From Minisyncoccota bacterium (lineage in GTDB: Bacteria > Patescibacteriota > Minisyncoccia > Phycocordibacterales > WO2-35-19): a stretch of DNA of 64,000 nt. The stretch's first letter is position 1. Every line of letters starts with the position of its first letter. The notes under the pieces are model-generated. The model saw only the letters and a program-made list of their open reading frames with translations. It was not told the origin of the DNA and searched no databases. Below, in pieces: positions 11,546-58,216 of this stretch. Location: the NCBI GenBank assembly GCA_041664625.1, contig JBAYKK010000001.1, positions 1,956 through 65,955 on the forward strand, in the 5' to 3' direction. A program made the translations under genes and the position numbers.

Positions 11546-11664
11546 AACCTAACCCCCTTAATCCCCCTTATCTTAAGGGGGAAACCACGCAACATAAATA
11601 AACCATTGAGTAATAAACAGTAGTCACCCTCTCCTTAATATAAGGAGAGGGAAGGGGTGAGGTT
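11546..11664. repeat. ~120 bp MITE-like element. Its terminal inverted repeats are AACCTAACCCC and GGGGTGAGGTT, and it holds two internal GC hairpins (CCCCCTTA/TAAGGGGG and CCCTCTCCTT/AAGGAGAGGG).
   Basis: Read directly. Related copies lie at 12570, 54257, 55026 and 58149. Confidence 0.6.
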
Positions 11665-12358: not shown

Positions 12359-13027
12359 TTAACTTCTGTTCCGGAGTGCATTTTTCATCGTCTCTGGATC
12401 AGTATACTCCAATTCGGTGCCCATAGAAAGACCTTTGCCCAAGTGCGAAATTTTGATTTTATTTTTTTCTAGGATTGGTTTTAAAAATTTGGCGACGTAA
12501 TCTCCTGTGTTTTCGCCTTCTGGGTTCCAATTGACGCCCAAAATAATCTCTTTAAGTCCAGAATAATGTTCCTCTCCTCGCCCCCCTCTTAAGGTAAGAG
12601 GGGGGTTGGGGGGTGATATTCTTTTTTCAATAAAACTTTTAAGTTCTTTGATGCGGATTCTTTTTTCCGGTTCTTTTTCTAATATCGGCACTGAACCACC
12701 AAGCACAAAATAAATGCCATTGAAACTGCCGTTTTTTTCTACTGATTCCAGATCGATATCTCTTTGTACCAACATCAAGACAGATTGGTCTCTAGTCTGA
12801 TCAGAGCAAATTTTGCAAAAGTGGCCATTATTGTTTTTGGATTCAAAAAATCTATGACAATCTTCACAAATCATCACATCATTTTTTAAATCTTTTATGT
12901 TTTGAGAAAGTTCTCTCAAAGTGCTATCGGTCCGGGTCAAAAGATAGTAGACAAACCGCCGAGCTTGCCGTGGGCCAATACCTGGGAATTGGGAAAATAT
13001 TTGAATGAGTTTTTCTATTGAGTTCAT
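12359..13027 (-). CDS. recR: Recombination protein RecR carrying a ~17 aa in-frame insertion encoded by a hairpin repeat.
   Basis: HhH 'GIGPRQARR', C4 Zn finger 'CEDCHRF...CKIC' and Toprim 'IILGVNWNPEGENTGDY'. The extra segment 'SPPNPPLTLRGGRGEEH' maps to 12570-12619. Confidence 0.9.
   Translation of the reverse strand: MNSIEKLIQIFSQFPGIGPRQARRFVYYLLTRTDSTLRELSQNIKDLKNDVMICEDCHRFFESKNNNGHFCKICSDQTRDQSVLMLVQRDIDLESVEKNGSFNGIYFVLGGSVPILEKEPEKRIRIKELKSFIEKRISPPNPPLTLRGGRGEEHYSGLKEIILGVNWNPEGENTGDYVAKFLKPILEKNKIKISHLGKGLSMGTELEYTDPETMKNALRNRS
12570..12619. repeat. GC-rich hairpin repeat (CCCCCCTCTT-aaggt-AAGAGGGGGG followed by GGGGGGTGA) lying inside the recR coding sequence.
   Basis: Perfect 10 bp stem in an otherwise AT-rich gene. 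Its end resembles the family's TIR. Confidence 0.55.
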
Positions 13028-54217: not shown

Positions 54218-54311
54218 AAAATTATTGTATCATATAGCTACCTCATTTTGAAATTACTACCTCACCCCTAACCCCTCCCCTTGCAAAGGGGAGGGGAAAG
54301 AGACAAAAACA

Positions 54312-54665
54312 ATGTCAAAAATTCATAATAATAAAATTTTCATAGAAAGAAGAGTAGAATTACGAAAGAATCAAACTCCGACAGAAGAAAAATTGTGGTT
54401 CTTTCTTCGAGGTAATAAACTTAACGGAGTAAAATTTAAAAGACAGCATAGTATAGGAGGTTATATTCCGGATTTTTATTGCGCCAAAAAGAAATTGATT
54501 ATTGAACTTGATGGAGAAATACATAACACAACTGAAGCTCGAGAATATGACGAAGTAAGAGATAAGTTTTTTAAGGAACTTGGATATACAACACTCAGAT
54601 TTTTGAATAGGGAAATAGAGAATGATATTGATGAGGTTTTGGACAAAATATCAAAATTTTTGTAA
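54312..54665 (+). CDS. DUF559 (Vsr/PD-(D/E)xK-like) endonuclease-domain protein.
   Basis: 'RKNQTPTEEKLW..LR......KFKRQHSIGGYIPDFYC..KKLIIELDGEIH' with a C-terminal 'LRFLNREI'. Confidence 0.75.
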   Translation: MSKIHNNKIFIERRVELRKNQTPTEEKLWFFLRGNKLNGVKFKRQHSIGGYIPDFYCAKKKLIIELDGEIHNTTEAREYDEVRDKFFKELGYTTLRFLNREIENDIDEVLDKISKFL

Positions 54666-54715
54666 CAGAAAACCCGCCCATCGCACGAGCAGGAATTCCT
54701 GTCGCCAATGGCGGG

Positions 54716-54928
54716 TTAGCGAGAAACCACAATCTCGCCGGTCCGAAGGTCTACGATATGGGACCAGTCGTAACCGTCGAAGCCGGTGGTCTTGGGCAAC
54801 TTCTCAGTTGCTTCCTCGGTGGTGTTGAAGGACATTACTCGGCCGTCTTCTTTGCGAAGAACAGATTTCCACCCCTCGTGTTCGTCGCCATCGTTAATAC
54901 AGCCTGCGAAAATGATATATCTCAGCAT
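54716..54928 (-). CDS. Hypothetical small acidic protein (~70 aa), GC-rich, inside the TIR element.
   Basis: RBS GGAG upstream of ATG. A bidirectional hairpin (AACCCGCCCAT...ATGGCGGGTT) separates it from the DUF559 gene. Confidence 0.35.
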   Translation of the reverse strand: MLRYIIFAGCINDGDEHEGWKSVLRKEDGRVMSFNTTEEATEKLPKTTGFDGYDWSHIVDLRTGEIVVSR

Positions 54929-55101
54929 ACTCAATCTCCTCTGTCTTAATTATACACCCATTCAATATATATGTCAAGCAAGAAAGAGTAAAAATGTTTT
55001 AAAATAAGGAGATTTTGGTATTTAGCCCCTCCACTTTGCAAGGGGAGGGGCAATCCGACGCAAGTCGGATGGGGTGAGGTAGTTTTTGAAGTGGGGGAAA
55101 A

Positions 55102-58148: not shown

Positions 58149-58216
58149 AACCTCACCCCTAACCCCTCTCCTAGATGCAGGAGAGGGGAAAATGTCAAAG
58201 GTGCCCTTTGACATTT
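58149..58216. repeat. Repeat-family copy (AACCTCACCCCT + CCCCTCTCCT-agatgc-AGGAGAGGGG) followed by a perfect 12 bp hairpin AAATGTCAAAGG-tgc-CCTTTGACATTT.
   Basis: Read directly. Lies upstream of rpsU. Confidence 0.55.

Follow-up and report, generated by a model that had tools for sequence, protein, structure and literature searches.

The analyzed window is a 64,000-nt stretch of the genome of an uncultured Minisyncoccota bacterium. At the trxB-ftsZ junction it carries an 826-bp unit bounded by a perfect 12-bp inverted terminus (54257-54268 and 55071-55082). Three samples carry the locus. The sequence CTACCTCACCCC occurs exactly twice in the window even when one mismatch is allowed, at 54257-54268 (+) and 55071-55082 (-), against an average of 0.11 occurrences in shuffled sequence. 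Each terminus is followed inward by a C-rich/G-rich hairpin. On the left, where the G-rich strand is the minus strand (54257-54296), the C-box CTACCTCACCCC (54257-54268) is followed by the linker TAA (54269-54271), a pyrimidine arm CCCCTCCCC (54272-54280), the loop TTGCAAA (54281-54287), and a purine arm GGGGAGGGG (54288-54296). On the right, where the G-rich strand is the plus strand (55025-55082), a hairpin with one A.G mismatch (55025-55051) is followed by an 18-nt mini-hairpin linker (55053-55070) and the G-box GGGGTGAGGTAG (55071-55082). Folded as DNA with ViennaRNA, which cannot model triplexes, the two ends gave -13.2 and -19.5 kcal/mol (z -4.0 and -6.1), with the G-box left unpaired in the left motif.

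Between the termini lies a DUF559/YcjD-family gene (54312-54665, +) encoding a 117-aa protein which matches Pfam PF04480 at 1e-35 (122 bits against a gathering threshold of 20.6). The protein is 42% identical to E. coli YcjD and is a homologue rather than an equivalog, scoring 79 bits against a cut-off of 218 for NCBIfam NF007294. By sequence it matches PDB 3HRL at 8e-24. An AF2 model (pLDDT 87.9) predicts a Vsr-like PD-(D/E)xK fold, with Foldseek hits to 3HRL (1e-7), the catalytic domain of the homing endonuclease I-Bth0305I (1e-4), and Vsr (0.05). Residues D54, E65, D67, H71, D80, and D84 are invariant in 20 aligned sequences. PADLOC returned only weak hits, to DpdF and to a homing endonuclease model (1e-4), and thus gave no support for a known defence system. 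Only one of 2.9 million viral contigs encodes a relative, which led us to reject a phage origin.

A convergent ORF (54716-54928, -) encodes 70 aa from its ATG and has 51% GC against 40% for the window. It is preceded by a perfect sigma-70 consensus promoter (54949-54977, -; TTGACA-17-TATAAT, 12 of 12 matches). An imperfect hairpin between the two genes (54671-54717, -; -13.7 kcal/mol, z -3.3), followed by TTTTCTGTTA on the minus strand, reads as its intrinsic terminator. Among 5.8 billion proteins the 70-aa protein had only two hits, its own sequence and one 74%-identical relative in an unrelated contig without motifs, and it matched no Pfam or PADLOC family. This ORF is variable between relatives and is not part of the conserved unit.

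Related modules were found at four other positions in the window. A gene-less inverted doublet lies between rplU and a VKOR gene and consists of a degenerate motif (11548-11582, -) and a second motif (11626-11664, +) whose purine arm GGAGAGGG and box GGGGTGAGG are a perfect mirror. A solo motif (12581-12616, +) is inserted in frame in recR, where it encodes the peptide SPPNPPLTLRGGRGEEH, and another (58149-58189, -) lies upstream of rpsU and has the same loop (TAGATGCA) as the left end of the second DUF559 unit of this genome. The preliminary description of the locus had reported the inverted termini, the gene content, and the dispersed modules, and this observation was confirmed with one correction. 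The dispersed modules had been called identical, but only the 9-mer CCTCACCCC is shared, by four of the six modules, while stems and loops differ and the recR copy has a different box (TCACCCCCC). They are diverged members of one repeat family.

The layout of these modules is that of a repeat of an already known type, the class II purine-motif intrastrand triplex motif (BoxC/PIT/TMECO; Holder et al. 2015, PMC4666352), in which a pyrimidine arm, a purine arm, and a G-rich box mirroring the purine arm occur in series. The 12-bp terminal inverted repeat of the preliminary description is this third-strand box. A three-part scan found exactly six motifs in the window, each with at most one triad mismatch, and none in 20 shuffles; the left motif was recovered at 54261-54296 with no hairpin mismatch and one triad mismatch, and the recR motif with no mismatches. 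DNA folds of the six ranged from -11 to -19.5 kcal/mol (z -3.2 to -6.1). Across DUF559 loci, 141 of 170 flanking hairpins with an asymmetric purine arm have a perfect triad-compatible mirror box within 45 nt, while only 18 have a perfect direct repeat, and mirror beats direct 133 to 3. A G-quadruplex reading of the G-rich strand was considered first but was dropped, as a quadruplex does not require mirror symmetry. An RNA role is also unlikely, because purine-motif triplexes do not form in RNA, and Rfam at gathering thresholds detected only three tRNAs in the window. The linker is TTA, TT, or AA in five of the six window motifs, against 3 nt (TTA or CCG) in E. coli, and the right end of the unit has a 20-nt linker with a mini-hairpin; 64 of 144 motifs in other loci have linkers of 10 nt or more. 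The geometry and the TTA linker match TMECO type A, whose triplex was demonstrated by CD and NMR.

To determine if the association with DUF559 is general, we examined loci encoding the YcjD-like subfamily of about 117 aa, the only one sampled, from Patescibacteria, Bacteroidota, Cyanobacteria, Geobacter, and others. A full three-part motif is adjacent to the gene in 80 of 82 loci and present on both sides in 64. Of these 64, 45 are inverted pairs, with the boxes distal to the gene in 23 and proximal in 22, and the remaining 19 are in the same orientation. Over 81 loci, pyrimidine/purine hairpin density is about 3 per kb within 150 bp of the gene and about 0.1 per kb beyond 1 kb. In 39 of 78 loci the two flanks resemble each other more than 95% of cross-locus pairs do. 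The second DUF559 copy in this genome (locus L085), which is 69% identical to the first, and the single viral locus are flanked as well.

The pairing extends to E. coli K-12, which has 23 TMECO loci and where ycjD has TMECO #9 of Holder's Table 1 lying 168 bp downstream. ycjD is single-copy in 3378 of 5426 genomes, and 3377 of the 3378 ycjD-positive genomes cover at least 80% of a query spanning ycjD and that motif. In a spread sample, ycjD-positive genomes have 11-27 matching places (median 19) and ycjD-negative genomes 1-18 (median 8). Published counts are 13-30 in the strains we assign to phylogroups A, B1, and C, in which ycjD is reported present, and 1-2 in those we assign to B2; both comparisons are confounded by phylogroup, and the repeats persist without the gene. 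Literature searches on DUF559 and ycjD, on REPIN/RAYT systems, and on intrastrand triplex, BoxC, and TMECO repeats found no paper linking the gene family to these repeats, although coverage was incomplete and an earlier report cannot be excluded.

We next compared syntenic sites in relatives. In 80 loci from relatives, the ftsZ-trxB site is empty in most (14-150 bp), holds gene-less motif doublets in loci L099, L101, and L102, and holds a DUF559 gene only in the window and in a sister species (L005 and its metagenome copy, L091). In the sister species the unit has the same ends but different cargo, while equally close relatives have empty sites or gene-less doublets. The rplU-VKOR site is empty in relatives L169 and L171, and recR alleles without the insertion (KIKEGL) occur in close relatives. 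A crude NJ tree of recR on 199 columns shows filled and empty alleles interspersed but is too weakly resolved to distinguish repeated gain from repeated loss. Comparison of filled and empty ftsZ-trxB, rplU-VKOR, and recR sites showed no target-site duplication, with no direct repeat abutting the ends. No Pfam or PADLOC family was found for the L005 counterpart of the 70-aa ORF or for the 92-aa ORF in L085, and cargo at other loci is heterogeneous, including a CDP-alcohol phosphatidyltransferase, a weak DUF5680 match, and a PemK toxin.

The preliminary description interpreted the unit as the probable autonomous parent of MITE-like derivatives, perhaps mobilized by the endonuclease in a cut-and-paste or homing-like manner, and our data support this interpretation only in part. 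The short repeats and the ends of the DUF559 unit do belong to one family, other DUF559 genes are flanked in the same way, presence/absence polymorphism occurs at syntenic sites, and a role as shared terminators is unlikely given the lack of a T-run, the in-frame copy in recR, and published tests of the E. coli motifs in which no terminator or promoter activity was found. Behavior as an autonomous cut-and-paste or homing transposon is not supported. That the terminal repeat is the third strand of a known triplex-forming repeat, and that the closest precedent is REP/REPIN-RAYT rather than a MITE and its parent, had been missed.

Taken together, the data suggest that the unit is one locus of a widespread pairing in which a YcjD-family DUF559 nuclease gene is bracketed by an inverted pair of class II purine-motif triplex repeats. 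We consider a REP/REPIN-RAYT-like partnership the best model, but hold it no more firmly than as likely as not. On single-stranded DNA the G-rich box could fold back as an antiparallel third strand (G*G-C, A*A-T, and T*A-T triads). In this model, the repeat would fold when transiently single-stranded during replication, transcription, or supercoil-driven extrusion, and the DUF559 protein would recognize the folded repeat or its duplex form and nick at or beside it. Repair of these nicks would allow the repeats to spread, be maintained, or be homogenized, would cause occasional gain or loss at particular sites, and would turn over flanking DNA, which would explain the different orphan cargo genes next to the repeats. 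The nuclease gene would be low-copy, mostly vertically inherited, and held between two of its own repeats as RAYT genes are held between REPs, with the solo and doublet repeats elsewhere as its non-coding partners. Our analysis establishes the structure-compatible covariation, the gene-repeat association, the site polymorphism, and the predicted nuclease fold, whereas physical triplex formation by the window repeats, action of the protein on the repeats, and a causal role in their spread are inferences from sequence and genomic association, with no biochemical or genetic evidence that any DUF559 protein binds or cuts these repeats. The window repeats are diverged rather than recent copies, so ongoing spread is not demonstrated, and the variable orientation around the gene is awkward for any single excision geometry. 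Triplex formation has been shown by CD and NMR only for the E. coli sequence, and Holder et al. could not detect the triplex in double-stranded DNA or in vivo by DMS footprinting.

In a broader reading, which we consider possible but somewhat less likely than not, YcjD-family DUF559 proteins would be dedicated structure-specific nucleases of intrastrand triplex repeats and form with them a second, HUH-independent class of nuclease-repeat partnership spread from Patescibacteria to E. coli, whose nicking activity would also drive local gain and loss of small gene cassettes next to the repeats. This would explain the 30-year-old BoxC/PIT puzzle, the genomic instability around TMECO sites, and the function of a large DUF family. 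The repeats have been known since the early 1990s and form triplexes in vitro but have no known function, origin, or mobilizing activity, and DUF559 is a very large family with a solved structure (3HRL) and a K-12 member but no known function. Their conserved physical pairing, from a minimal uncultured bacterium to E. coli, reduces both problems to the single question, tractable in K-12, of whether YcjD acts on TMECO DNA. If so, it would be the first nuclease known to be specialized for a DNA triple-helix motif, a new example of long-lived nuclease-repeat coexistence of the REPIN-RAYT kind, and possibly a mechanism for hotspots of small-gene turnover.

Among alternative explanations, the DUF559 gene may be a free-standing homing endonuclease gene whose target is the triplex repeat or a repeat doublet, which cuts gene-less doublets and is copied in by repair so that it always ends up between two half-sites, the repeats existing independently of it. 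The closest functionally characterized structural relative is I-Bth0305I, one weak PADLOC hit is of this type, gene-less doublets (L099, L102) occupy the very ftsZ-trxB site that holds the gene in the window, and protein identities of 45-55% across phyla suggest horizontal transfer. However, the gene is single-copy at one fixed locus in 3378 E. coli genomes and syntenic between two Patescibacteria species, gene-less doublets persist in genomes that carry the gene (as in this window), both box-distal and box-proximal arrangements occur, the unit carries extra variable cargo, and the gene is intergenic rather than within an intron, intein, or conserved target gene. We consider this reading unlikely.

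Passive co-localization, in which triplex repeats make DNA fragile and mark recombination hotspots where DUF559 and orphan genes simply accumulate with no functional tie, is less likely still. Motif loci are hypervariable in E. coli, and the ftsZ-trxB site collects unrelated cargo, including PemK-type toxins, with or without motifs. Against this, the bracketing is tight, typically 10-40 nt from the start and stop of the gene, the local enrichment is roughly 30-fold, the pattern recurs in at least six phyla and in E. coli, and DUF559 is the constant partner while the cargo differs from locus to locus. Cis-regulation or insulation of the DUF559 gene by the flanking repeats, for example by sequestration of a GGAGG ribosome-binding site in the upstream hairpin or by repeats acting as transcription barriers, is doubtful. 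The purine arm GGGGAGGGG ends 15 nt before the ATG and no promoter was detectable between the repeat and the start codon, but the same motifs occur far from any DUF559 gene and inside recR, their orientation varies, purine-motif triplexes do not form in RNA, PIT elements showed no promoter or terminator activity, and mirror-box covariation is not needed for a simple RNA hairpin. An autonomous cut-and-paste transposon with MITE derivatives is the least likely, as the perfect 12-bp termini, the gene-less inverted doublet at 11548-11664, and the presence/absence polymorphism are outweighed by the lack of a target-site duplication, of near-identical copies, and of a known transposase fold (the only coding content being DUF559 and an orphan ORF), by common solo half-elements, by swapped cargo at the same site with the same ends in a sister species, and by boxes that face inward in 22 of 64 loci, which does not fit a fixed terminal-repeat-bounded element.

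The window repeats share with BoxC/PIT/TMECO repeats (Bergler 1992; Hoyne 2000; Holder et al. 2015, PMC4666352) the order of pyrimidine arm, loop, purine arm, short linker, and mirror G-box, often the same TTA linker (as in TMECO type A), occurrence as solo motifs or inverted doublets, a mostly intergenic location, and an association with locally variable DNA. They do not match the TMECO consensus CCCTCNCCC-N3-6-GGGNGAGGG-N3-GGGNGAGGG; the window pyrimidine/purine/box variant is CCCCTCYCC / GGRGAGGGG / GGGGTGAGG rather than CCCTCNCCC / GGGNGAGGG, with arms of CCCCTCCCC, CCCCTCTCC, or CCCCCCTCT, and one copy is in frame inside a gene. In addition, 44% of the motifs next to DUF559 genes carry a 12-25-nt linker that often forms a mini-hairpin, which the search of Holder et al. 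would have missed as it allowed loops of at most 6 nt. Holder et al. reported finding no mobility-related gene near the motifs, and the DUF559 link was not noticed even though TMECO #9 lies 168 bp from ycjD. The motif-rich genomes they named include Enterobacter asburiae LF7a, Microcystis NIES-843, and Neisseria gonorrhoeae, the source of 3HRL.

The predicted fold of the window protein and its conserved acidic and histidine residues are shared with I-Bth0305I, an EDxHD-type Vsr-fold homing endonuclease, and with Vsr, but the gene is not in an intron or intein, the protein has no extra DNA-binding domains, and it lacks the partner cytosine methyltransferase which Vsr has. Rickettsia palindromic elements and MITEs such as Correia elements are likewise short structured repeats with inverted ends that can sit in frame inside protein-coding genes without destroying them, as in recR here, but these are simple palindromes with no mirror third strand, and no associated PD-(D/E)xK gene is known for them. 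In REP/REPIN-RAYT systems (Nunvar 2010; Bertels & Rainey 2011) the nuclease is an HUH/Y1 (IS200-like) transposase rather than a predicted Vsr-like PD-(D/E)xK protein with no activity shown to date, and the repeat is a simple palindrome with a GTAG or CGTC tag rather than a triplex motif; copies within the present genome are also diverged, and variable cargo genes ride next to the nuclease gene. In common with those systems, a low-copy, largely vertically inherited nuclease gene is bracketed by inverted copies of a structured repeat, the same repeat is dispersed as singlets and inverted doublets, and recognition of a DNA structure on single strands is the presumed basis.

The perfect 12-bp inverted termini that prompted this analysis, CTACCTCACCCC, occur in the window only at positions 54257-54268 (+) and 55071-55082 (-), even when one mismatch is allowed, against an average of 0.11 occurrences in shuffled sequence. 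The preliminary description of this unit was accurate in its coordinates, in a stretch of 40% GC from a Candidatus Paceibacterota (Patescibacteria) metagenome-assembled genome. Inside each terminus is a C-run/G-run hairpin, and between these lie a DUF559 ORF (54312-54665, Pfam PF04480 at 1e-35), a convergent, GC-rich 70-aa ORF (54716-54928) with a perfect TTGACA-17-TATAAT sigma-70 consensus promoter (54977-54949), and the terminator hairpin of this second ORF (54671-54717). The 70-aa orphan gene is 51% GC in a 40% GC genome, and its only relative, at 74% identity, lies in an unrelated contig (L004) that has no motifs, which suggests a recently acquired cassette. A partial extra copy of the terminal box lies a few bases outside the left end (CTACCTCA, 54238-54245, ending 11 nt before the terminus). 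Related modules were found at about 11548-11582 and 11626-11664, where they form an inverted doublet, at 12581-12616, in frame in recR, and at 58149-58189. While the preliminary description took these to be identical to the ends of the unit, they are diverged relatives, with only the 9-mer CCTCACCCC shared by four of them.

Each module consists of a homopyrimidine arm, a loop and a homopurine arm that pairs with the first arm and, after a short linker, a G-rich box. The box is the mirror image of the purine arm and not a direct repeat or a complement of it; for example, the arm GGAGAGGGG is accompanied by the box GGGGTGAGG, which read backwards is GGAGTGGGG. Every G faces G and every A faces A or T, and these are the triads of an antiparallel purine-motif triple helix. 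To test this relationship, we examined the hairpins flanking DUF559 genes in 81 loci plus the window. Of 170 hairpins with an asymmetric purine arm, 141 have a perfect mirror box within 45 nt and only 18 have a perfect direct repeat, with the mirror scoring higher in 133 cases and the direct repeat in 3. The arm sequences vary between lineages (GGGAAGG/GGAAGGG, GGGGAGG/GGAGGGG, GGAGGGGG/GGGGGTGG and others), indicating three-way covariation. An independent three-part scan of the window returned exactly the six modules and nothing in 20 Markov shuffles. In 44% of the motifs next to DUF559 genes the linker is 10 nt or longer, and among linkers of 12 nt or more, 37% contain a stem of at least 5 bp, compared to 3% after shuffling; the sequence of this stem differs from locus to locus.

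Repeats of this type have been described previously as class II purine-motif intrastrand triplex motifs (Holder et al. 2015, PMC4666352). The TMECO motif of that study is the older BoxC/PIT element, CCCTCNCCC-N3-6-GGGNGAGGG-N3-GGGNGAGGG, often with a TTA second loop, and it occurs in more than 260 genomes. The single strand forms a stable triplex in CD and NMR experiments, but the triplex was not detected in duplex DNA or in vivo, and earlier work cited there found no promoter or terminator activity. Motif loci are unusually variable between E. coli strains, and the authors state that they never found transposase or integrase remnants nearby. The modules of the window share this architecture and the TTA linker but represent a different sequence variant.

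The link to DUF559 is general. We retrieved 80 genomic loci encoding relatives of the window protein at 44-76% identity, from Patescibacteria, Bacteroidota, Cyanobacteria, Geobacter/Desulfuromonadaceae, Chlorobiota, Planctomycetota and Rhodothermales. Pyrimidine/purine hairpins occur at about 3 per kb within 150 bp of the gene and about 0.1 per kb beyond 1 kb, with 68 of 81 loci having one upstream and 65 of 81 having one downstream. When the full three-part definition was applied, a motif was adjacent to the gene in 80 of 82 loci and present on both sides in 64. Of those 64, 45 are inverted pairs, but orientation varies, with the boxes distal to the gene in 23, proximal in 22 and in the same orientation in 19. 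In half of the loci the two flanks are more alike than 95% of cross-locus comparisons. The second DUF559 gene of the same genome, which is 69% identical and lies about 20 kb away, outside the window (locus L085), has the same layout of box, mini-hairpin, hairpin, DUF559, a 92-aa membrane ORF, hairpin, mini-hairpin and box. This locus also has a partial extra copy of the box outside its left end (AACCTCACTCC, L085 4910-4920, 8 nt before the box). The only viral contig found to encode a relative is flanked by motifs as well. In Gelidibacter gilvus (L034, 2903-3500), two different motif types with GGAGGAG and GGGAAGG arms alternate downstream of the DUF559 gene in a tandem array with a period of about 243 bp.

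[quoted passage not shown] In the surrounding region of K-12 (1,351,200-1,351,830, locus L088), a partial duplicate of the 3' end of ycjD (GAGACGGTGCTGGAGAATATTC...) lies between the gene and TMECO #9, and a 15-bp-stem hairpin containing CACCTCA lies upstream. ycjD is single-copy in 3378 of 5426 complete genomes, and 3377 of these cover at least 80% of a query spanning ycjD and the neighboring motif. A recent paper places ycjD in phylogroups A, B1 and C (plus ST69 and ST182), with the eef operon occupying the site elsewhere. When we assigned the strains in the supplementary counts of Holder et al. to phylogroups, A, B1 and C strains have 13-30 motifs, B2 strains have 1-2, and D, E and F strains have 6-15. 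In our own BLAST of a spread sample, 37 ycjD-positive genomes have 11-27 matching places (median 19) and 23 ycjD-negative genomes have 1-18 (median 8). This is the pattern expected if the gene maintains the repeats; however, it is confounded by phylogeny, and the repeats clearly persist without the gene.

To look for evidence of mobility, we compared sites in metagenomic relatives, in 80 of which ftsA-ftsZ-trxB synteny holds. Most have a 14-150-bp ftsZ-trxB spacer with no motif, including relatives (L089, L090 and L092, with FtsZ 86-88% identical) that are as close as the sister species, while three relatives (L099, L101 and L102) have gene-less motif doublets at this site. The spacer is also a hotspot for unrelated small genes in the clade, in loci L093, L097, L117, L139, L163 and others, which include PemK/MazF-type toxins (L163, and probably L097) and several orphans, with or without triplex motifs. 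Only the window and a Zambryskibacteria relative (L005, also recovered as L091) have the DUF559 unit. In that relative the ends are the same and DUF559 is 76% identical, but the cargo gene is different and unrelated, and the partial extra box outside the left end is absent. The right-end hairpin keeps an A.G mismatch in both the window (55025-55051) and the sister species (L005 3341-3367), and most E. coli TMECO hairpins keep a G.A mismatch (the "A mm" type), which is curious because the predicted nuclease fold is that of the mismatch-specific nickase Vsr. The rplU-VKOR site, which holds the gene-less doublet in the window, is empty in two relatives, L169 and L171, and in a third, L172, holds a motif doublet plus a GC-rich orphan gene.

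In recR (12359-13027), the triplex motif is translated in frame within an insertion at about 12560-12616 (SPPNPPLTLRGGRGEEH). It is absent from the closest RecR relatives, which read KIKEGL at the site, and is present or decayed in more distant ones. Between the window and the relative L170 the arms and the box differ, and in each sequence the three parts remain mutually compatible. RecR proteins of relatives carry further GC-rich-looking insertions at a second site after the zinc-finger region (for example PSAHRSFPRTAEAFSGGVSE), and some have N-terminal extensions that read like translated motifs (NLTPRFASPSPCEGDG). Taken together, sites gain and lose motifs, but in these comparisons we found no target duplication, no identical copies and no evidence of recent movement of the 826-bp unit.

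The AlphaFold model of the window protein is confident (pLDDT 87.9). Its best structural matches by Foldseek are 3HRL, an uncharacterized Neisseria gonorrhoeae endonuclease-like protein that is also matched at 8e-24 by sequence, the catalytic domain of the homing endonuclease I-Bth0305I, and Vsr. Several apicomplexan and ciliate mitoribosomal proteins (9i05, 9g6k and 6z1p) contain a domain with the same fold. Residues D54, E65, D67, H71, D80 and D84 are invariant in an alignment of 20 sequences. An active, sequence- or structure-specific DNA endonuclease is plausible on this predicted fold and residue conservation alone.

The repeat type and the protein family are each known, but we found no report of their association, although the literature available to our search was incomplete. 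The evidence is correlational but strong and cross-phylum, and it makes two old unknowns testable in E. coli K-12. What the sequences show is the physical pairing of gene and repeat, the covariation of the three repeat parts and the polymorphism of motif sites; catalysis, and any action of the protein on the repeats, are inferred. We consider it about as likely as not that the nuclease acts on the repeats, and less likely that it is what spreads them. Of the alternatives, a homing-type gene that targets repeat doublets is possible but unlikely, and passive co-localization at fragile hotspots is more doubtful. Regulation in cis is improbable, and the autonomous TIR transposon is the least likely reading. 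The interpretation in the preliminary description was supported only in part, as other DUF559 genes are likewise flanked by such repeats and sites vary in motif presence, but autonomous transposition was not supported.

The best fit to these data is a partnership resembling the REP/REPIN-RAYT systems, in which a low-copy, mostly vertically inherited nuclease gene sits between inverted copies of a structured repeat, and the same repeat is dispersed as singlets and inverted doublets. Here, the nuclease is a predicted Vsr-fold enzyme instead of an HUH transposase, and the repeat is a triplex motif instead of a simple palindrome.
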